From assembly GCF_003018255.1 (NCBI RefSeq), contig NZ_CP027440.1: DNA of 64,000 bases; one strand, written 5' to 3'. The stretch's first letter is position 1, and each line of letters starts with the position of its first letter. Made by a program: the position numbers and the translations under genes. This document shows, one piece after another, positions 18,287 to 39,311 of the stretch. The notes under the pieces are model-generated. The model did not search any database. It was not told where the DNA came from and saw only the letters and a list, made by a program, of their open reading frames with translations. Origin of the DNA: Escherichia coli (GTDB lineage: Bacteria > Pseudomonadota > Gammaproteobacteria > Enterobacterales > Enterobacteriaceae).

Positions 18287-19234
18287 TTACAGATAATCCG
18301 CGACAACCAGCTCCAGCTTGCCCTTCATCTCGTTAGAGACGGTTGCGTTTCCGTCTGCGAACAGTTCACGCTCCAGCAGCTGCACCGCCTGTTTTTCCAG
18401 CGAGGTGGGGACAACAATATGGGTGGGTTTGATGCCGAGTTTGCGGCCACCGTCAGCGGTAAATTCGCGCATGGCTGACCAGCCGTGCCACAGTGCATCC
18501 AGCGTCAGCGGTGACTGCATCATGTAGGCCATCTGCCAGAAGCCGTAGCCCACATTGCGACGGGCGGATGCACCAAACACAAATTCGTTATCGGTGAATG
18601 CGCGACCTTCATCGACTTTGGTCTGGGCAACCAGTTCAGCCTTACGGCGATCCTGATAAATCAGCGGTTTGATTGCGCGTGAACAGTCGAGCAGATACCA
18701 GGCAGGACCGCTGTAATCCGCTTGTGCACCGACAGAGCCGGTTTTTGCCACAAACATATTGCTGACCATCTGCGCATCCCCGGAGCCATCCACTTTGGGG
18801 TAAACAGGATGTTCGGTATCAAAGAAGTTCTGGCCGTCATAGCAGGCCGCATTAATCCCGTCACGAAGAGCAGCAAAGACCAGTTCATCCGGTTGTGCCG
18901 CAGCAGCGCGCCCCATCTCCTGGAACAACGGGGAATAAATACCGAGGTTATCGTCTTCGAAGTCATCGCGGTTAATGGCGACGGTGCCTTCAAAGGTTTT
19001 GTTCACGATGGCATAGCCATAGGCCTTCATCTTCTCGATGACGCGGGAGCCGATCCACTCACGGAACTGCGGGAACTGCCCCAGCCAGCCGTAGGTGTTG
19101 GATTTCGACGTGGACGGTACGGTCATCGCAATTTTTTTGTACTGCGACGGGGCCATGGACATCCCGGCCTGAAAATCAGAACGGTAGCCCGTCATCAGGG
19201 CGGTGATCATCGCCGGTGTAATCGGGGTAGGCAT
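18287..19234 (-). CDS. Major head subunit T (Mu gpT-like)
   Basis: 315 aa, MPTPITPAMITALMTGYRSDFQAG...KSNTYGWLGQFPQFREWIG. A GC hairpin (18250-18280) follows the stop. Confidence 0.85.
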   Translation of the reverse strand: MPTPITPAMITALMTGYRSDFQAGMSMAPSQYKKIAMTVPSTSKSNTYGWLGQFPQFREWIGSRVIEKMKAYGYAIVNKTFEGTVAINRDDFEDDNLGIYSPLFQEMGRAAAAQPDELVFAALRDGINAACYDGQNFFDTEHPVYPKVDGSGDAQMVSNMFVAKTGSVGAQADYSGPAWYLLDCSRAIKPLIYQDRRKAELVAQTKVDEGRAFTDNEFVFGASARRNVGYGFWQMAYMMQSPLTLDALWHGWSAMREFTADGGRKLGIKPTHIVVPTSLEKQAVQLLERELFADGNATVSNEMKGKLELVVADYL

Positions 19235-20358
19235 TATTGCATTTCCTCTTTCATTTTCAGGAACTCGGCTTCGGTTTTACCCAGCAGTTTGGCGGCCGCG
19301 ATATCTTCAGCCGACAGCACAGCGGTGGCAGTCTTTTTATCCGGCACGGTCACGGTGTCGGTCTGAAGGCCGGTCAGGGCCGCAACCGGCTGGCGGGCGT
19401 CAAGCTGTGCAGAAAGTGCCGCAACGCCAATCTGCCCGCCCAGTTGTTCCAGATAGCCGCGTTCGCTTTTGAAGATGCGCCCTTCGGATTCAGCCTTGTC
19501 CAGCACCTGCTCCAGCGTGGTGCTGCCGTGCTGCGCCGACAGCGCAACGTATTCGGTACGCAGGGCGTTATACGTTTCAACGGGCACGTATTTCGTCAGA
19601 TCAATACTGCCGCCAGCCGGTGTGCCTTTTGCGGTTTCCAGCTCTGCCGACAGACTGGCGACCTGTGTTTTCAGGTTGTCGTGTGCATCCGCACGGGTTT
19701 TGATCCCGGTGAGGGCAGACAGCGCCGCCGTGCCCAGCTCCGGCGTAAATTCGTCACCGTCAGCCACGGTCAGACCGAGCGCCGTCAGCAACTGGCGTAA
19801 TTGCTCATTCATGGAGGTATCCTTTAAAGGAGGGTTTAAGGCGTTATAAAGGTCATCCGCCGACAGTGCGGCGACAGGATTCATGCCGGTCAGACCGGGG
19901 TCACCGGTAATAGCCAGCATCCGAAGTTCGACAGGTTCGCCGGTGCTCTCGTCATAGCCAATCACCGGTGAAAACCAGGGGAATTCGTTATTACGCAGAT
20001 GTTCAAGGGCCGGAGGGTTCCACTTCGGGCGCACCTCGAAACCTCGCTCTTCACTGAAGCGAAAATTCTCCGGTGAGGCCATCACAAAACCGGCAGCCGG
20101 TGCCGGATGTCCCTCAATCAGGGTCTGGTGGTTGTAGTCAATTTTCACCGGCTGATTGAGCGCCACAACACGGGAGACCATGCGCTCAACGGCTGCATGG
20201 TTGATCAGCCAGCCCTCGGCCGGTTTTTCCGGGCGACCGTCACGGGCCTTTACCCGACCGGCTGGCATGATCTGACACCAGTCACCGTCCCCGTCTGCGG
20301 ACAGGCTGATGGCATTCAGAATGGCATAAGCAAGTTTGGGCGTGTTTTTCGTCTTCAT
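19234..20358 (-). CDS. Head maturation protease/scaffold I (Mu gpI-like)
   Basis: 374 aa with an N-terminal protease-like domain and an Ala/Leu-rich coiled C-terminal scaffold part. Its stop overlaps the T start. Confidence 0.8.
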   Translation of the reverse strand: MKTKNTPKLAYAILNAISLSADGDGDWCQIMPAGRVKARDGRPEKPAEGWLINHAAVERMVSRVVALNQPVKIDYNHQTLIEGHPAPAAGFVMASPENFRFSEERGFEVRPKWNPPALEHLRNNEFPWFSPVIGYDESTGEPVELRMLAITGDPGLTGMNPVAALSADDLYNALNPPLKDTSMNEQLRQLLTALGLTVADGDEFTPELGTAALSALTGIKTRADAHDNLKTQVASLSAELETAKGTPAGGSIDLTKYVPVETYNALRTEYVALSAQHGSTTLEQVLDKAESEGRIFKSERGYLEQLGGQIGVAALSAQLDARQPVAALTGLQTDTVTVPDKKTATAVLSAEDIAAAKLLGKTEAEFLKMKEEMQ

Positions 20359-20534
20359 TCCGGCAGCATAGGCCGGGAATTTTCAGGGCGGGTTTTGCGG
20401 GATTTCAGGAAGTGCTTCCAGGGGAAAAATACAAAGGCGCTTCACGCAGATTTTAAAGCCCGTTAAATACAGGTTAGAAAATCACGACACGCGCCTGAAG
20501 GGGGTAAGGTAATGCATTTGCATACCTTAAACAA
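20359..20534 (-). promoter_or_regulatory. G-I intergenic region (expected late promoter, Mu P_I position) with near-perfect palindrome
   Basis: This is a 176-bp non-coding gap in an otherwise tightly packed late region. It holds TAAGGTAATGCA-TT-TGCATACCTTA at 20505-20529, immediately after the G stop. Confidence 0.45.
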
Positions 20535-21008
20535 TTAAGGCGTTTCTGTGGCCTTTTTAAAGCGTTTTCTGATTTCGTCCATGATCTCCTGCTCTGCCAC
20601 CTGATCAAAGCCCATATACGGACGTGCACCAATGGCCGCCGGTCCCGGCGGCATACCTGGCAGGCCACCCCACTGATGAATGGCCGCATAAGGCTCATTT
20701 GATCCAATCAGCGCCCAGGTGTCGCCATAATCCGTGGTCAGGCGTCGGGCCAGATCGCCGTTCAGCGTCAGGATTTTGCCGGGCATGTATCCCTTACGGG
20801 TACGCCACTTGCGGTAAGGATCTGACCAGTCATGCCAGCGTTCGCCGTCCGGCTCTTTTTCCTGTTCAAACGCCATTTCTGACGATGACAGAAGGCTGGA
20901 CGCCACACTGCGGGCCAGGTCTTTTCCGCCACCCACAAACTGAAGCCGGGCAAAGACCCGCTGGAGACGCGTAACGTCAACAACGACGGCGGCATCAATG
21001 GATGACAT
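20535..21008 (-). CDS. Virion morphogenesis protein G (Mu gpG-like)
   Basis: 157 aa. GGAGG RBS. In Mu synteny between F and I. Confidence 0.75.
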   Translation of the reverse strand: MSSIDAAVVVDVTRLQRVFARLQFVGGGKDLARSVASSLLSSSEMAFEQEKEPDGERWHDWSDPYRKWRTRKGYMPGKILTLNGDLARRLTTDYGDTWALIGSNEPYAAIHQWGGLPGMPPGPAAIGARPYMGFDQVAEQEIMDEIRKRFKKATETP

Positions 21009-21046
21009 ATTGCCTCCGTATAAAATATGAATATAAAATAAGCAGG

Positions 21047-21129
21047 CGGTCAGTGTACGCTTAACTGGTAAAGTCGGTGCCTGCCTCCGGGTGGATCATG
21101 TATGCGGGTTCGACCCCCGCCACTGACCG
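21047..21129 (+). other. tRNA-like structured element (acceptor-like stem plus canonical T-arm), not a canonical tRNA
   Basis: Closing stem CGGTCAGTG (21047-21055) pairs with CACTGACCG (21121-21129). T-arm is GCGGG-TTCGACC-CCCGC (21104-21120). TA follows the 7-bp stem, and a D-like hairpin has loop AACTGGTA. No convincing anticodon stem and no encoded CCA. Confidence 0.4.
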
Positions 21130-22461
21130 TTAATCAATATCTCCTTCCAGTACCTCAAGCATTCCGCCCCGGATATCCGATTTCAGCTTATCCATATTGA
21201 TAACCCGGTAAGCATTAACAATCACATCCAGTTTATCCGGCTGACGCTTCAGGCTGTACGGTGCATTAACGGCAATCTGCACACTGCCATCCTGATTTTC
21301 CACGATATACATCAGATTGTTGTGCCGTTTGTCCCACAGTACCGCTTTTGGCCTTGCCAGCATTGCCGGTAAGCGCCCGAAATCCTCCGGTGTCAGGGCG
21401 ATACCGTCATTCTGATGTTTCATGCTGTCCGCATGGAGCACATTTTTACCGCTCATCGCCAGCAGGCGGGCCGGTGGCGTTCCCGTCCGGCTTTCCACCG
21501 CCTGCGCAATGCTTTCGGTCATAAAGCCCAGCGTGCGGATATCGTTACCGCCTCGCCGGGTTTTCATGATGTTTTTTGCCCAGATGCGGAACGCCAGCTG
21601 CCGCTCCGGGCTGTTGTTCATCTCCTGAACCACCATTTCCCGTAACGCCGGGCTTTTCACCTCGATCAACTTGCGGAGCAGCGCCTGGTCTGTGCCGAAC
21701 GCCGCCGAACCGGGGTTATATGACCAGCCCACATCCGGTGTCATGGTTCTGGTGCCATCTGAATATGTGGTCACCGGCATTTCTCTGACTTCTCCGGTCT
21801 GCTTATCCACGCCAGCCTCAACATTGCGGGTGGAAAGATGATCCTGACCGGATGAAACGGATAACCCCATTGCATCCAGACGGGTCTGAGACAATGGCCG
21901 GACACGGCAGCGGCAGTTCCAGCCATTGGGTGGGTAGTGTGTATTCCAGAACGGATCGTCATAGCGGAATACCAGACCGTTAAGGGCGGAATGCGCCGGG
22001 CGGGTGCGGCTGTCCATCACCGCCACATACTGCCAGAACGGATGCGTGTCCGTGTTGTTCATCATCTGCGTGTAACGCCCGGCATTGTAAGCCACGCGGG
22101 TGTTCACGTTGTAAATCAGCGCCAGACGGCGGGGACAGCCCAGCTGCACTTCTTCTGCGTTACCGGCGCTGTCCACCACAATCTGCTTTCCCCACCATCC
22201 CAGCTTTTGCAGGCGGGGGGTCAGTGTGCGGATAAATGCTTTCTGTGAAATCCCCTCATCAATGGCCCGTTGCACTTCCGCCTGTAGTGTGGTCAGTACG
22301 TCCAGGCGTGCCACTTTTGCCGCCGTGAACGAACGGGCATGAACATCCGCGTCTGTTTCGAACCAGTTCCAGCTGATATGCGCCCCTTTGGCGCGGAAGT
22401 ATGCCACCGCCTCTTTTGAGGGAAGCGTGGCGGCATAACCTAAATCAATCCCCTGTGCCAT
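21130..22461 (-). CDS. Head morphogenesis protein F (Mu gp30-like, SPP1 gp7 family)
   Basis: 443 aa with the motif RTRPAHSALNGLVFRYDDPFWNTHYPPNGWNCRCRV typical of this family. Confidence 0.85.
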   Translation of the reverse strand: MAQGIDLGYAATLPSKEAVAYFRAKGAHISWNWFETDADVHARSFTAAKVARLDVLTTLQAEVQRAIDEGISQKAFIRTLTPRLQKLGWWGKQIVVDSAGNAEEVQLGCPRRLALIYNVNTRVAYNAGRYTQMMNNTDTHPFWQYVAVMDSRTRPAHSALNGLVFRYDDPFWNTHYPPNGWNCRCRVRPLSQTRLDAMGLSVSSGQDHLSTRNVEAGVDKQTGEVREMPVTTYSDGTRTMTPDVGWSYNPGSAAFGTDQALLRKLIEVKSPALREMVVQEMNNSPERQLAFRIWAKNIMKTRRGGNDIRTLGFMTESIAQAVESRTGTPPARLLAMSGKNVLHADSMKHQNDGIALTPEDFGRLPAMLARPKAVLWDKRHNNLMYIVENQDGSVQIAVNAPYSLKRQPDKLDVIVNAYRVINMDKLKSDIRGGMLEVLEGDID

Positions 22462-24043
22462 CCAGCATCCCCTTCATTTCCGCAGCAAACATGGCATCAC
22501 TGAGCAGCGTCATCAGGCGGGAATCATCCATTTCACGGTAAAGGGCAGGCAGGTCTGCCAGTGCCTCCGCCAGCCCCCGCGTTCTGATGGCATCAATGAC
22601 CGGCTCCAGTACCGGGTCGATGGCCTCCTGTAACCGGCGGGCAGGCACCGCATCCCCCATGTCGTCCAGTTCATCTCGGGGGCTGCTTTTCGCTTCCGGC
22701 AGTCTGGCAGCCAGCGCTGTCTGCTCTGTCTTCTCCTGTTTTTCCGGTGGCATCTCTTTGTCTGTCTGAGCAGGTTCATTGCCACTCTGACGGACACGGA
22801 AGATGGCTTCACCGGGGGCAGGCTGTGGAATACCGGTCTGCTCCCGTACCCAGGGATCAGGAATATCCATCCCCGTACTGAGCTGCATCACCGCACTGGT
22901 GATTTTGGTGATATCCCCCGGCTCTTTTGTCTGGAAACAGATACGCGGCAGGCGACGGATATCAATGGCGTGGGCGGTGTTCAGGGCATACAGCGGATAC
23001 ACCAGATCGCGGTTCAGCGTGGCGGCCAGCTGACGTAAATCAGAATCCCTGATTTCCCGGCGCACCTCGTTATGCACTTCACCCAGCGAACGTGCGCCCT
23101 TGTCTCCGGCTTCCGTGGTCAGCGTGCCGCCGAGGATAGCTTTGGAGATGGAACGCTCCCCCCACGAAATCATGGTTTCAAACGGATCGGCCTGACCGTT
23201 CGCTGCCGCCTGAAACTCCAGCGACATCCCGGCCGGGATGATCCCGCCTGTACGTCGCCCGATATCCATCACCGCCCGCATCAGGGCGCTTTTCTGCTCC
23301 GGTGTTGCCCCGGAGGGGTATTTACCGACCTTCATCGGCAGGCCGTACACCTCCAGAAATTCAGCCAGATCGCGCACGGAATAGTTTTTGAAAATGAACG
23401 GCCAGATAAGCGTTCTGACAAGCCCCGTCGCACCACCGTAGCCGGTGCGTGAACGTGACTGATGCACTATCCAGCCAAAGGGCTGAAACGCCACCCCGGC
23501 ATGGCTGCCGTCACGCAGCCGCAGTTCGCTCAAATCATCCGGGTTAAGGCAGAAATGCCCGCTGTCACGCCAGCGGATGGCGCGGATGATGTGCATTTTA
23601 CCGAGCATCCCGTGCTCAATCTCCATGCAGGAATAGCCTTTCAGGATGGCATCGGTGGCATCAAACAGCATGGCATCAAACCAGTCGGCGGAATGCAGAT
23701 ATTCGTCGAGCATTTCCGCGTCCTTTTTCTCATTCGCGCTGGCGTTCGGGGGCGGCTCAATACTCCAGGGCACGCCCTGAATGGCAAGACGTCGCTTGCC
23801 CAGCTCTGCAAAAAGGTGGGTATCCTTTTCTTCAATGTCAGCGGCCAGATCGGACTGGGCAATCAGATCGCCACGTTCAGCCCCGCGAAGGCACTGTGCC
23901 GCCCGGTTCGGGGTGATACCCGAGGCCGGATGTTCAATATAACGGCTGGCAATCTGCGGAATATCCAGCGCGGCGCTCTGCATCTCCGGGTCAAAGGAGA
24001 AAGGTTTTCCGTCAAGATCAATTATACGTCCCACTACCAGCAC
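22445..24043 (-). CDS. Portal protein H (Mu gp29-like, DUF935)
   Basis: 532 aa, between the large terminase and F. Confidence 0.85.
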   Translation of the reverse strand: MLVVGRIIDLDGKPFSFDPEMQSAALDIPQIASRYIEHPASGITPNRAAQCLRGAERGDLIAQSDLAADIEEKDTHLFAELGKRRLAIQGVPWSIEPPPNASANEKKDAEMLDEYLHSADWFDAMLFDATDAILKGYSCMEIEHGMLGKMHIIRAIRWRDSGHFCLNPDDLSELRLRDGSHAGVAFQPFGWIVHQSRSRTGYGGATGLVRTLIWPFIFKNYSVRDLAEFLEVYGLPMKVGKYPSGATPEQKSALMRAVMDIGRRTGGIIPAGMSLEFQAAANGQADPFETMISWGERSISKAILGGTLTTEAGDKGARSLGEVHNEVRREIRDSDLRQLAATLNRDLVYPLYALNTAHAIDIRRLPRICFQTKEPGDITKITSAVMQLSTGMDIPDPWVREQTGIPQPAPGEAIFRVRQSGNEPAQTDKEMPPEKQEKTEQTALAARLPEAKSSPRDELDDMGDAVPARRLQEAIDPVLEPVIDAIRTRGLAEALADLPALYREMDDSRLMTLLSDAMFAAEMKGMLDGTGD

Positions 24044-35496: not shown

Positions 35497-37587
35497 TCAG
35501 GCCAGCGGGTCATTTTCTTTTAATTTCGCTTCCAGCAACTGCAATCCCCGCTGGAAATTACGCTCGTATTCTTCATCAGGTTCATCGTCAGCGACCGGTT
35601 GCTGAACGGTCACCGTATTACCCACAGGGCGGTATATGTTTTCCAGCCAGGGCTCCTGCGGCTTGTGCTCCAGCACGTTGACAACCTCATCCTCGGCATC
35701 ACGGATTTTTTCCTCTGCGCGTTTACGCATGCCTTTAAGGCGTTGCTGCTGTTTGTAGTATTCCGCGCTAACCGGGAAGGCTTCGCGTTTATTACCGTCC
35801 CATACCGCCTCGCAAATCACGCTGCCATCCAGGCGACGTACGGTAATTCGTTCGGCATCATGAATGTCATAGCTGATAAGCACCTTACGACCATGCTCGT
35901 CACGCAGCTCGGGCGCGTAGTAAATATTATTCAGCCAGCGTATTTCACAGCGTCTTACAGGGCGTTCCACCATCGGCCGGAACATATCCCGCAGCTCAAC
36001 ATCGGACAGCCATTCAATTTCCGTGTCCTCTTCCGCCAGGCGTTTTTTTCTGAACTCCGCCGGGCTGTAATGCTTGCCGTTCGGCTTCACCGGTAATTCA
36101 TCGTGCGGCCGGTTGTTGTACCACTCAACACCGTCACGAATGGCATCAATCAGTTCAGACCAGGACGGTAAATCACGCATCGCTGACTGCTGCCGGGCGT
36201 TCAGCCGTTTGCCCTGTTGCAGGGCAGTAAATGCCGAGCGTAAATCGCGGTTGGTTTTGCGTAACGTCTCGCGATCTGCACCTTTCCCGAAATAGGTGCG
36301 GTATTTACGGGCTATGCGCATCGGTAATGTGCGGTTAAGCCGTTCGATAATGCCTCGTCCCTGCGGATTACCGGCAATCCCGGTCGGGTGATTAATCCCC
36401 AGTCGCGGCAGTATCCCCACAACCTCCTTATCCAGGATGTCGGCGGTTTCCCCGGAGCCGTTATCCGAGTAATACAGAAACGGTTTGCCGTGATGGCGAA
36501 TGCCGTGCTGTATGGCACCGGCTACGGCGAAAACATTTTCAGCCAGGTCAAGGCTCCAGCCCACCACAAAGCGCGTGCCACCGTCGATAACAAAGGTCAC
36601 TTCCGGTGCAAATGGCCGACCGTGAACCGGGTGTGCGCATTTCAGCTTCATGCCGTGACCGTCACCAATCCAGACATAATTCACCGGCATTCTGGACCAG
36701 TCGCGGCGCGTGAATCCCTCAAGCTGGCGGTATTCACTGCCGGTCACCCGGCCTTTTTGTTTCACCACTTCCGGCAGTTTCTTCATTGCGCGGCGAATGG
36801 TGTCATAAGACGGCATGATATCGAGCATATAAGGCTCATCAGCGTGCCGGTGCTGCCATTCAGCGACAAAATCCTCGTAAGCCTCGGTCATTGGTCGGCC
36901 GTTTGACTGGCGATACTGCGCCAGAAATTCGGGCAGCCAGTTAATATCTTCAGCTTTTATTTCCTGGCGCTTACCCGGTGCCAGTAAAAGCAGGCGTTCA
37001 GCGGCGTTCTGCGCCTTGTTAAAGGCCGCAATCCAGCGTTTCAGCGTTATTTCACTCAACGCACGGCTGTTTCCCTTTTTGGCGTTCGCCGTCTCAACCA
37101 TTGCCACAATGCGCTCGTCCAGTTGCGAACGTGCCAGGTTGTCAACGATAAACCGGATAGCTTTCGCACAGCTGAAACCGGGTTGTTGCGCGACTTTCAT
37201 CACTTCGCTGACGATCGCAATTCGTGCATCAGCCACCTGGCGCTGGTTTTCAGTCAGGGCATTAAGGCGTTCAACCATCAGTTGTGGTGATCCGCGATAT
37301 GCCTCCACCGCATCAACCACGGCAGGCGAGCGTCTGGCCTTTGTCACCACCGGAGCCGGTGATTCATCAGCTTTTTGCGTCATCAGTTGAAGGGCATAAC
37401 GTTCACGCAATACTTGTTGCGCGCCAGAAGGCAAACAATCGATATTAAATTCGATTGCTTTTGTCCCCTTACGTTTGCGTAACATGGCTGCATTTCCCGC
37501 AGCTGCTTTTGTGAGTCGATGGCGAATGTTATGTTCCATCATTGGTAAATCAGGAAGACCAACACATTCTTTTGCTGTTACCCACAT
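35497..37587 (-). CDS. DDE transposase A (MuA-like)
   Basis: 696 aa with an N-terminal DNA-binding region, a central rve-like core (WIGDGH...YYSDNGS) and a C-terminal acidic tail. It follows a ner-like gene. Confidence 0.9.
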   Translation of the reverse strand: MWVTAKECVGLPDLPMMEHNIRHRLTKAAAGNAAMLRKRKGTKAIEFNIDCLPSGAQQVLRERYALQLMTQKADESPAPVVTKARRSPAVVDAVEAYRGSPQLMVERLNALTENQRQVADARIAIVSEVMKVAQQPGFSCAKAIRFIVDNLARSQLDERIVAMVETANAKKGNSRALSEITLKRWIAAFNKAQNAAERLLLLAPGKRQEIKAEDINWLPEFLAQYRQSNGRPMTEAYEDFVAEWQHRHADEPYMLDIMPSYDTIRRAMKKLPEVVKQKGRVTGSEYRQLEGFTRRDWSRMPVNYVWIGDGHGMKLKCAHPVHGRPFAPEVTFVIDGGTRFVVGWSLDLAENVFAVAGAIQHGIRHHGKPFLYYSDNGSGETADILDKEVVGILPRLGINHPTGIAGNPQGRGIIERLNRTLPMRIARKYRTYFGKGADRETLRKTNRDLRSAFTALQQGKRLNARQQSAMRDLPSWSELIDAIRDGVEWYNNRPHDELPVKPNGKHYSPAEFRKKRLAEEDTEIEWLSDVELRDMFRPMVERPVRRCEIRWLNNIYYAPELRDEHGRKVLISYDIHDAERITVRRLDGSVICEAVWDGNKREAFPVSAEYYKQQQRLKGMRKRAEEKIRDAEDEVVNVLEHKPQEPWLENIYRPVGNTVTVQQPVADDEPDEEYERNFQRGLQLLEAKLKENDPLA

Positions 37588-37597
37588 ACATCCCCCA

Positions 37598-37864
37598 TCA
37601 AGCCACTTCTCTGGCGTCCACCTGGTATCTGCTGGGCCAGATTACAGCAGGTTCAACCCCTATTTTTTCGGCGATGGCGGCTTCGTATTTACGGCACTGG
37701 CGGTAAAACACATTGCGCATTGATCCGCTTTTTAATCCTAACTCCCTTTCCAGTTCAGGGAGGTCTGTGCCTTTGTTTTCAAGGGCTGCATATACCGCTT
37801 TAGCAGACCAGTCACACCCCTCTCGAACAAACAAATTATTCGATGCTTGTCTGGATACCCTCAT
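37598..37864 (-). CDS. ner: Ner-like early repressor (HTH)
   Basis: 88 aa. The C-terminal PAVIWPSRYQ matches Mu Ner (PEVIWPSRYQ). Confidence 0.8.
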   Translation of the reverse strand: MRVSRQASNNLFVREGCDWSAKAVYAALENKGTDLPELERELGLKSGSMRNVFYRQCRKYEAAIAEKIGVEPAVIWPSRYQVDAREVA

Positions 37865-38020
37865 TGTGTGATCCTCTCATGTTTACCTGAACCGATAATC
37901 AAAACCGGTTATCGATTTAGGTAAATCATAATCGCAAAATAATTCGATATCAACGGTTTTTTGCGAGCATATCGAAATTAAATGCGATGTCGATAATTTC
38001 TTTGTTTTATAGGGGGTTAT
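37865..38020. promoter_or_regulatory. Divergent immunity/operator region between ner and the repressor gene
   Basis: Five or more TCGATA/TATCGA-type hexamers lie at about 37892, 37909, 37943, 37969 and 37989. The region contains the early promoter candidate. Confidence 0.6.
37925..37953 (-). promoter_or_regulatory. Early promoter candidate (Pe)
   Basis: On the minus strand: TTGATA (37953..37948), 17-nt spacer, TATGAT (37930..37925). It lies about 60 nt upstream of the ner start. Confidence 0.55.
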
Positions 38021-38632
38021 ATGGATAAGGCAGAAAAAACCGTATCCAGTGCGGAACGGTTTATTGATATGGAAGGAATAAACCGATTTTCAGAACGCTT
38101 AGCTATGGCTATGGGAAACATGACAAACGTCGAACTGGCGACCCTTTGTGGACTATCTGAAGCCACAGTAAGAAATTACAGGAAGGGGAAAAACTTCCCT
38201 CCTTTGGATAAACTGGCCTTAATAGCTAAAGCCTGTAATTGTTCACTCGAATGGTTGGCCACAGGCAAGAACGAAGATGAATGCGGAAAAATCGAAAACA
38301 ATTGCGATTCAGGTTCGGGTATTGATCAGGCGCTTAGCTCTCTAAGCCCCCAAGAGAAGCAATTAATCCTTACATTCATCAGGCGAGAAGGTACTAATAA
38401 CCTTGTCAGGCTGGCAGCAATGAATACATCTACAATCAGCCAGGATGCGGTAGAAAGCATCATTGATGCCTTGCCATTACGTCCCGTACTAAAAAATGCA
38501 ATAAAGATAGGAATGGCGGGAAGTGAAGAAACAGACAAAGAGATTTTGCGCGTTATTGAGAAGTACAACTCGAGCAATAACGCCACCCAGGAATCAGGGG
38601 CAGTGACAGTAAAGAAAAATGTTGTTGGTTAA
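38021..38632 (+). CDS. Prophage repressor, XRE/Cro-CI-type HTH N-terminus with uncharacterised C-terminal domain
   Basis: 203 aa. The HTH is TNVELATLCGLSEATVRNYRKGKNFP. It is divergent from ner-A-B and occupies the Mu c position. AGGGGG RBS. Confidence 0.75.
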   Translation: MDKAEKTVSSAERFIDMEGINRFSERLAMAMGNMTNVELATLCGLSEATVRNYRKGKNFPPLDKLALIAKACNCSLEWLATGKNEDECGKIENNCDSGSGIDQALSSLSPQEKQLILTFIRREGTNNLVRLAAMNTSTISQDAVESIIDALPLRPVLKNAIKIGMAGSEETDKEILRVIEKYNSSNNATQESGAVTVKKNVVG

Positions 38633-38773
38633 GCGCCATCGCTATCATGAGGTGGTGCTGTAAATACATATAGAGATCATATGACTCATCCCAAGATAAT
38701 CACGCTATTGAATAGTAATTCATGATGATTATCATACTGATTATAGTTAGATCGATTATGTGAGCATTTTGGC

Positions 38774-38809
38774 AGTTTGAAGATGTTTTGAAGATGTTTT
38801 GAAGAAGAT
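38774..38809. repeat. Three tandem ~11-bp repeats (GTTTTGAAGAT)
   Basis: AGTTTGAAGAT GTTTTGAAGAT GTTTTGAAGAAGAT, read directly from the sequence. Confidence 0.8.
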
Positions 38810-38827
38810 TTTAAGGGTAAATTAGCA

Positions 38828-38999
38828 GTATCAAATGTGTCGCCGTTTTTTGATCTTTTGACTATTTGTTGAGCAGTCGGTATCAAAAAGAGTTTTCCGT
38901 CCGAAGTATACATCACCTGTTTTATTTCAGCATCTTACAGGTGATTTCACCTCCTTTCACTAAAACCCTTGTCGGTATCAAATGATTCACCTGGTTACA
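38828..38999. repeat. Prophage left-end terminal region with inverted TTTGATAC motifs (candidate transposase binding sites)
   Basis: GTATCAAA occurs at 38828-38835, 38880-38887 and 38975-38982. The last is 17 nt from the terminal ...GGTTACA. Confidence 0.7.
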
Positions 39000-39311
39000 A
39001 ACGATGGATTGATTGATAACCTGCCACAAGGATGTTGCGTGGAAGTAGCCTGTCTGGTTGATGCTAATGGCATTCAGCCGACCAAAGTCGGTACGTTACC
39101 TTCGCATCTGGCCGCCCTGATGCAAACCAACATCAACGTACAGACGCTGCTGACCGAAGCCATTCTTACGGAAAATCGCGACCGTGTTTACCACGCTGCG
39201 ATGATGGACCCGCATACTGCCGCCGTGCTGGGCATTGATGAAATATATGCTCTTGTTGACGACCTGATTGCCGCCCACGGCGACTGGCTGCCAGGCTGGT
39301 TGCACCGTTAA
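39000..39311 (+). pseudogene. melA: melA downstream part (C-terminal ~103 codons)
   Basis: ...NDGLIDNLPQGCCVEVACLVDANGIQPTKVGTLPSHLAALMQTNINVQTLLTEAILTENRDRVYHAAMMDPHTAAVLGIDEIYALVDDLIAAHGDWLPGWLHR*. The ATG at 38982 in the track lies inside phage DNA. Confidence 0.85.

Follow-up and report, generated by a model that had tools for sequence, protein, structure and literature searches.

Anticodon-less tRNA-like genes conserved among Mu-like phages and presumed satellite islands

Among the RNAs of phages and their satellites, c4 (of phages P1 and P7) and CI (of P4) are small, stable molecules with features of transfer RNA (tRNA) that are matured by the tRNA-processing enzymes of the host. In decoding tRNAs, a 7-base-pair (bp) acceptor stem with an unpaired discriminator base is canonical, and all tRNA genes of Escherichia coli encode the 3' CCA; the tRNAs of phage T4 provide a precedent for genes in which it is not encoded. 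Here, we describe a tRNA-like RNA gene located between the late genes F and G of a Mu-like prophage, in a 64,000-nucleotide (nt) stretch of E. coli DNA (contig NZ_CP027440.1) that is called ‘the window’ throughout. From the stop codon of F to the start codon of G, the gap measures 121 nt. A first-pass annotation of this DNA had singled out the gap as unusual and as having tRNA-like features on the plus strand, antisense to the late genes, and the features that it listed are all present. The gene belongs to a conserved family of tRNA-like genes, all without an anticodon, that is found in Mu-like phages and presumed satellites. This family is not one of decoding tRNAs, of transfer-messenger RNAs (tmRNAs) or of C4/CI RNAs, because the defining features of each were tested for and found wanting.

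Set against the decoding tRNAs (Rfam family RF00005), the RNA has the acceptor, D and T arms and all of the universal core nucleotides, and it is phage-borne. It differs in lacking a 5-bp anticodon stem, a 7-nt loop and a conserved anticodon—and hence in being unable to decode—as well as in an acceptor stem of 8 bp and one extra base after A9. With tmRNA it shares a tRNA top half without an anticodon. However, the window RNA has a normal D stem and lacks G3·U70, a tag reading frame, pseudoknots and an encoded CCA; together with a negative result from ARAGORN in tmRNA mode, this sets aside the comparison with a tmRNA-type tRNA-like domain that had been offered at first pass. The tRNA function of host tmRNA is itself said, by the title of a 2001 study by Ranquet and colleagues, to play a part in the control of the Mu prophage. 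As for c4 and CI, the Rfam C4 family gives no match to the window element even at E <= 10, and these RNAs are not known to keep the full D- and T-loop core. Target repeats complementary to the loops of the RNA were not seen, although no systematic target search was made, and the only loop match (TGCCTCCG) belongs to one allele.

Two further systems bear on the locus. The pseudo-tRNA tRNAOther of Bacillus cereus is a tRNA-like gene associated with a mobile region that is reported to have no role in translation, yet its deletion alters cell physiology (PMC3399842). It sets an earlier example of a tRNA mimic that does not decode and acts in trans; it comes from an unrelated organism and flanks a genomic island instead of lying in a phage late operon or satellite, and we liken the two by description. 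The other system is the phage moron. Like a moron, the element is a discrete unit of ~120 nt that lies between late genes overlapping in relatives without the unit and that is headed by a predicted sigma-70-type promoter of its own; to judge from its orientation and type of promoter, it may be expressed from the prophage. Unlike a typical moron, its cargo is an RNA gene and not a protein gene, and no terminator-like site comes after it. In anatomy, then, the element is a moron with an RNA cargo, the parts of which are arranged as follows.

21010-21015, plus strand: -35-like hexamer TTGCCT from the promoter scan, overlapping the complement of the G Shine-Dalgarno region
21034-21039, plus strand: -10-like hexamer TAAAAT, separated from the -35 by an 18-nt spacer and ending 8 nt ahead of the 8-bp stem
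21048-21128, plus strand: tRNA-like RNA gene of 81 nt (Rfam tRNA, 31 bits; covariance model R1, 92.1 bits; covariation; RefSeq ‘tRNA-OTHER’)
21048-21055, plus strand: 5' strand of the acceptor-type stem, GGTCAGTG, forming 8 bp with 21121-21128
21056 and 21057, plus strand: T and A, the equivalents of U8 and A9, followed by one extra C
21059-21074, plus strand: D arm GCTT-AACTGGTA-AAGT, with the equivalents of A14, A15, G18, G19 and A21; invariant columns lie within 21056-21074
21075-21103, plus strand: central arm in place of the anticodon arm (3-bp proximal helix, internal loop and distal hairpin)
21077-21079 with 21097-21099, plus strand: proximal helix of the central arm, 3 bp
21081-21094, plus strand: distal hairpin CTGCC-TCCG-GGTGG, variable in length and sequence among homologues
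21100 and 21101-21103, plus strand: G, then the short junction TAT, between the central arm and the T arm
21104-21120, plus strand: T arm GCGGG-TTCGACC-CCCGC with a canonical T-loop (equivalents of T54, Psi55, C56, R57 and A58)
21121-21128, plus strand: 3' strand of the acceptor-type stem, CACTGACC, ending 1 nt short of the F stop codon and without CCA after it

Read off the window sequence, the acceptor helix extends past 8 bp through C21047-G21129, G21046·U21130 and G21045·U21131. The stem is followed by GTT, CCA is not encoded, and the window element contains no 5-bp anticodon stem with a 7-nt loop; on both counts the first reading of the sequence was right.

On its own, the single window sequence is a borderline tRNA look-alike, and the case rests on comparison. 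For this purpose, 25 distinct and diverse homologues were aligned with MAFFT without being fitted to any structure, and a covariance model (R1, the E-values of which are rough) was built from the first 14 versions; R1 scores the window element at 92.1 bits and finds no other family copy in the window. When the cloverleaf is applied to the 25-sequence alignment, 92.8% of cells are paired; displacing the 3' partners by 1-3 columns lowers this to 38-52%. Compensatory changes on both sides occur in 17 of the 21 base pairs. Five measures were compared with 500 shuffles, not one of which matched the real alignment on any of them; a smaller homologue set also shows covariation. The stems of related prophages thus carry the compensatory changes on which the first-pass annotation had staked its proposal.

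These changes are spread over the whole molecule. In the acceptor stem, all eight pairs have both-side changes among the 25 homologues. The outermost of them (-1:73) is G-C in 10, A-U in nine, G·U in three and U-A in two sequences; because this pair covaries, the stem is one of 8 bp and not one of 7 bp with a free discriminator. The D-stem pairs are 92.9% paired and those of the T arm 99.2%, with three of five T-arm pairs covarying and GGTTC, A58 and CC invariant, and two of the three pairs of the proximal helix swap between lineages (U-A/C-G and G-C/A-U). The invariant columns correspond to the universal tRNA core (equivalents of U8, A14, G18, G19, A21, G53, T54, Psi55, C56, A58 and C61), a pattern that would not be expected of a relic. 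The alignment also settles the strand. Columns 30:68 hold a G·U pair in 18 of 25 sequences, and there are more such pairs in the D, T and acceptor stems; since G·U on the plus strand would be a C·A mismatch on the late-mRNA strand, the RNA is fixed to the plus strand. The D-loop GG and the T-loop TTCRA can likewise be read on the plus strand only.

The central arm behaves differently from the rest. Its distal hairpin often closes with a tetraloop—C(UCCG)G in the window version, elsewhere C(UUCG)G, UCAG or UCAA—and in some versions the stem has up to eight layers, at times including tandem G·A mismatches, beneath a loop of 9-14 nt. What stands in place of the anticodon arm is a variable rod without a conserved loop, and the RNA therefore cannot read a codon. 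Indeed, no conserved anticodon is found among the homologues, for which relaxed ARAGORN calls disagree, and neither candidate for position 3:70 (columns 3:96 and 4:95) is G·U. Taking these lines together, we are highly confident that the locus holds a real, selected gene on the plus strand for a non-decoding, tRNA-shaped RNA.

Standard tools are less forthcoming. In a 351-nt search (20900-21250, permissive filters), the Rfam tRNA model RF00005 reaches 31.0 bits, its gathering score being 29, with an E-value of 9e-5 and on the plus strand only; the alignment covers all but the anticodon arm, which is passed over by a local gap; no other Rfam family matches this interval even at E <= 10. A whole-window Rfam run at gathering scores with default filters does not report the element, and ARAGORN makes no call on it at default settings, with the intron option or in tmRNA mode. 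Of the check by these two programs that had been suggested at first pass, the small Rfam search therefore gave a borderline tRNA match, whereas default ARAGORN and the whole-window Rfam run were silent. With its threshold lowered to 70%, ARAGORN assigns five homologues to Arg, Leu, undetermined, Pro/Val and Cys, and its tmRNA mode is negative in five homologues. The folding energy of the single sequence (z = -1.3 to -1.5 against shuffles) is not distinguished from that of shuffled sequence; the minus-strand fold (-29.9 kcal/mol, z -0.83) is weaker than that of the plus strand. The Rfam score is borderline, ARAGORN is silent and the folding z is unremarkable; it is covariation, and not any single-sequence score, that is decisive.

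In many E. coli genomes, the RefSeq pipeline places a ‘tRNA-OTHER’ at this locus, between a ‘phage virion morphogenesis protein’ and a ‘phage head morphogenesis protein’. The commonest E. coli allele, which has one change inside the RNA (T-loop G57 to A, a permitted purine), is without a RefSeq tRNA annotation. We found no description of the RNA in the literature on tRNA-like RNAs in Mu-like phages, Sp18 small RNAs, prophage tRNA-OTHER or Mor satellites, and the family has no name other than this automatic label.

A promoter scan of 20800-21400 returns one sigma-70-like site where 0.5 are expected by chance, and so by itself no more than chance. The pattern nevertheless recurs among homologues: TTGNNN, 16-18 nt (nearly always 17) and TANNNT lie upstream of 22 of 23 distinct Mu-like copies, compared to 3.5% of shuffled upstream sequences. 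The -35 takes the forms TTGCCT, TTGCCC, TTGAAC and TTGACT and the -10 the forms TAAAAT, TATACT, TATAAT and TAAATT, while the spacer sequence varies freely; TAAAAT is unchanged across E. coli alleles with differing spacers. The idea that the element has its own promoter thus survives with its TTGCCT, which belongs to the conserved pattern, but the -10 first proposed (TATAAA) has to be replaced by the overlapping TAAAAT at 21034-21039. The direct repeat of TATAAAATA in which that promoter had been set is not conserved: in the E. coli allele that occurs most often, the first copy reads CATAAAGGA. Across copies, the -10 hexamer ends 7-20 nt ahead of the stem, a spacing that would put the transcript start at the helix base or up to ~13 nt before it (in the window, at ~21045-21047). 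No terminator-like site is found downstream on the plus strand within 20800-21400.

The 141-nt region that contains the element is present in 229 of 5426 complete E. coli genomes (~4%), many of them Shiga-toxin-producing, and in 228 of 230 E. coli records there is a place covering at least 80% of the query. E. coli prophages carry several diverged versions at the same spot, with 72-76% identity to the window version. Additional Mu-like contigs were drawn from IMG/VR via alignment of F and then scanned with R1. Where F is 63-66% identical, these contigs have the element at 57-68 bits, in the same position and orientation; where F is 43% identical, the element scores 37.7 and 20 bits. The isolated Pasteurella phage Pmp9 (L240, OR544140.1) has a copy at 2010-2089 on the minus strand of the locus (57.3 bits) that is absent from its GenBank annotation, within an F-G gap of ~114-123 nt depending on the G start chosen. 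With the RNA, the F-G gap is 114-122 nt, all of it filled by the promoter and the RNA gene; without the RNA, as in Mu and D108, it is -4 to 20 nt (the genes overlap by 4 nt in Mu and its close relatives and are otherwise 9-20 nt apart). In all Mu-like homologues, the 3' strand of the stem abuts the F stop codon, and the gene is always antisense. Exact-pattern scans of 185,579 species-representative genomes returned no family member but only unrelated tRNAs and chance matches, which shows only that those motifs are missing there.

The family is also found outside complete Mu-like phages. Small integrative islands without annotated virion genes carry the RNA at their end, in one to three tandem copies; the island of which both ends can be seen (L132) measures ~8 kb, and the name ‘satellite’ for these islands rests on gene content only. 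The islands, several of them on gut-metagenome contigs, are the following.

L132 (NZ_AP045176.1): island at the ileX tRNA gene (RefSeq label tRNA-Ile), beside nfeF
L136 (NZ_CP027586.1): island beside dinD
L153, L159, L162 and L164: metagenome loci with islands

Their genes encode an integrase, a helix-turn-helix (HTH) regulator, Icd-like proteins, a primase or helicase (of RepA type, or toprim+DUF927), SSB, PerC and a Mor-family activator; this activator and the one of the prophage itself share 47% identity. The RNA copies lie downstream of mor, on the same strand as the island genes, in intergenic DNA; that they are antisense to no annotated gene points to action in trans. A tandem pair is present in 14 of the 5426 E. 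coli genomes. Island arrays hold both of the lineage types described below, the first copy being preceded by TTTACC, 17 nt and TACTAT and later copies having no promoter-like site; GTGAAA iteron-like repeats lie ahead of the arrays, and the differences among arrays fit unequal crossing-over.

Within the window, the Mu-like prophage spans ~160 to 39,000. The tRNA-like RNA gene, on the plus strand, shares the orientation of the repressor gene and runs against every lytic gene, as the positions of the annotated genes make plain.

18287-19234, minus strand: T, late/lytic gene
19234-20358, minus strand: I, late/lytic gene
20535-21008, minus strand: G, Phage_tail_S family, with its start codon at 21006-21008 (complement CAT)
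21130-22461, minus strand: F, Phage_Mu_F + MuF_C, with its stop codon at 21130-21132 (complement TTA)
22445-24043, minus strand: portal gene, lytic
35497-37587, minus strand: transposase A gene, lytic
38021-38632, plus strand: repressor-like HTH gene, the only one of these in the direction of the tRNA-like RNA and opposite to the lytic genes

What the RNA does is a separate question from its existence. We favour, with about an even chance of being right, a reading in which an insertion of ~120 nt between F and G (21010-21128, plus strand) comprises a sigma-70-type promoter and a non-decoding, tRNA-shaped RNA that would act in trans as a tRNA mimic and would probably be expressed in the lysogen. 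Among the options listed at first pass, a tRNA-mimic small RNA expressed from the prophage is the one that fits. Host RNA polymerase would read the promoter without a phage activator, and the RNA would probably be made in the lysogen. As there is no terminator-like site on the plus strand in 20800-21400, the transcript would probably be cut out by host tRNA-processing enzymes, which are predicted to recognise the stacked acceptor and T arms and the D/T elbow. RNase P would cut at the 5' end, the 3' end would then be trimmed, and CCA might be added. The result would be a stable, L-shaped RNA that could serve as a decoy, competitor or cofactor for a factor that recognises the tRNA top half and ignores the anticodon.

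Several considerations weigh against this reading. No gene co-varies with the presence of the RNA in the flanks examined; the fixed antisense position at the F stop in every Mu-like phage could reflect a cis-antisense role; with a conserved outermost pair (-1:73) and no encoded CCA, the 3' end may not be tRNA-like; a decoy would face competition from all of the tRNA in the cell; and the promoter and the processing route are predictions from sequence. A more speculative extension, which we put forward as doubtful, is that the RNA is a shared currency of helper phage-satellite conflict—a tRNA-shaped cofactor or decoy on which some step of the development or lysogeny of Mu-like phages depends—and that Mor islands carry arrays with both ancient paralogue types to mimic, hijack or jam the RNA of any helper that they encounter. 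On that extended reading, the RNA would represent a new class of phage and satellite non-coding RNA that works via tRNA mimicry and not via base pairing. The non-decoding tRNA mimics known in bacteria are isolated examples; the present genes make up an entire family, with clear signs of selection, a fixed place in a classic phage group and copies in satellite-like elements. Such a family would offer a compact and easily mutated handle on the use of an anticodon-less tRNA shape in a phage, and it could lead to a factor, of host or phage, that recognises tRNA and has a part in lysogeny, defence or satellite parasitism.

Of the other explanations, cis-antisense regulation survives best, and we hold it to be unlikely. 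The RNA would pair with the F-G spacer of the late polycistronic mRNA, leading to cleavage or altered expression of G and silencing leaky late transcripts in the lysogen, and the tRNA shape would serve only stability or processing, as in c4 (P1) and CI (P4), which are antisense immunity RNAs processed by RNase P. The position and orientation are indeed invariant in all Mu-like copies, abutting the F stop with the promoter packed against the G start, and with no plus-strand terminator, transcription probably continues antisense into F. In the window allele only, the distal hairpin also holds TGCCTCCG (21082-21089), complementary to the G Shine-Dalgarno region. However, that match is missing in other alleles, the RNA does not reach the G ribosome-binding site, many distal loops are closed tetraloops (e.g. 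UUCG) that are poor for loop-loop contacts, the satellite copies are antisense to no annotated gene, and the invariant universal tRNA tertiary nucleotides are left unexplained. The narrower idea of anti-Shine-Dalgarno pairing between the distal hairpin and the G ribosome-binding site was rejected on the first of these grounds. The octamer TGCCTCCG occurs twice on the plus strand, at 21011-21018 (the complement of the G Shine-Dalgarno region) and at 21082-21089, and other alleles are without a match.

An RNA that is chargeable, and not merely tRNA-shaped, seems improbable. In that case, CCA would be added, the RNA would be charged by an anticodon-blind synthetase (of Ser, Leu, Ala or His type) and the product would be used outside decoding, as an aminoacyl donor or sink. 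The full tRNA core and elbow are retained, and there is an 8-bp acceptor stem with a paired -1:73, which recalls tRNA-His and tRNA-Sec. The scaffold also resembles long-extra-arm decoding tRNAs identified by ARAGORN: a tRNA-Thr(UGU) of a Bacteroidetes metagenome-assembled genome (L060 1561-1644, 48.8 bits with R1) and a tRNA-Ile(UAU) of a phage tRNA cluster (L017 3775-3867, 42.8 bits with R1). Both have the D-arm signature GTAC-CTTAATCGGTAAAG and the T arm in common with the family, and they may hint at the type of tRNA from which it descends. Against charging stand the lack of an encoded CCA and of G3·U70, the presence of G-C at -1:73 in only 10 of 25 sequences, by which a His-type identity is not conserved, and the lack of a transferase or ligase gene nearby.

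Still less probable is an element that acts as DNA, as an attachment or recombination site or a module-exchange boundary, and not as an RNA gene. Support comes from a divergence island of ~400 bp (window 21000-21390) covering the RNA and the last ~85 codons of F: four E. coli prophages with 96-100% identity across the rest of 6 kb fall to 62-74% there, and the extreme C-terminal ~20 residues of F differ most. The lineages are old, since ‘type 1’ (that of the window) and ‘type 2/3’ each recur in distant phages and in satellites, and mosaic recombination between diverged phages is the best account of the island. A short metagenome contig (L144, Ga0209599_10049188) has two diverged copies with 10-bp acceptor stems (122-195 and 756-831, minus strand) that flank a stand-alone, frameshifted open reading frame (ORF) 30% identical to F residues 287-442, the MuF_C region, and the satellite arrays look reshuffled by unequal crossing-over. 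A DNA-level role is countered by the G·U pairs and compensatory changes, which indicate selection on the RNA fold, by the conserved promoter and by the presence, in 228 of 230 E. coli records, of a place covering at least 80% of the query, there being no split copy flanking an insertion in the loci examined.

We give very little credence to a functionless relic of a phage tRNA, whether a decayed tRNA or a dead insertion, as had been entertained at first pass. The destroyed anticodon arm, the missing CCA, the rejection by ARAGORN and the borderline Rfam score are what a relic would have, but covariation in 17 of 21 pairs and unvarying core bases are seen across phages with F only 43-66% identical, the promoter is kept from Enterobacteriaceae-type to Pasteurella-type Mu-like phages, and the element is kept in satellite-like islands as well. 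Finally, a structured processing or attenuation signal on the minus strand of the late mRNA, ahead of G—another of the earlier suggestions—is scarcely credible, since although the late mRNA contains the complement and is able to form a weaker cloverleaf-like fold, that fold falls short of the plus-strand one, near-invariant plus-strand G·U pairs become C·A in it, and the tRNA-type D and T loops, the Rfam match and the conserved promoter are all on the plus strand.

Two other candidates were considered and rejected. A MuF polymorphic toxin with an RNA immunity factor, suggested by the divergence island, does not fit, as F aligns end to end with Mu gp30 and its C-terminus is an ordinary MuF_C (PF18819), homologous across alleles. 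A hypervariable specificity cassette was rejected for the distal hairpin, as the array differences (L002, L136 and L164) are explicable by unequal crossing-over and the E. coli alleles are deep lineages.

Additional observations concern the prophage and its surroundings. The window prophage is 98-99% identical to one in strain E2855, from which it differs in the immunity region (37421-38910, with the repressor-like ORF at 38021-38632). In the window, beside the right end of the prophage (about 38990-39311), there is an ORF (38982-39311) resembling the C-terminal part of a broken gene, the kind of remnant that Mu-type insertion into a host gene would leave; in E2855, the same phage is inserted inside a lambdoid prophage instead. 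The spacer between G and I (20359-20534, 176 nt) corresponds to the one that carries the annotated gyrase cut site in phage Mu and may be an equivalent strong gyrase site. The only canonical tRNA in the window is a host tRNA-Phe (GAA) at 56952-57027 on the minus strand (Rfam, 68.3 bits).

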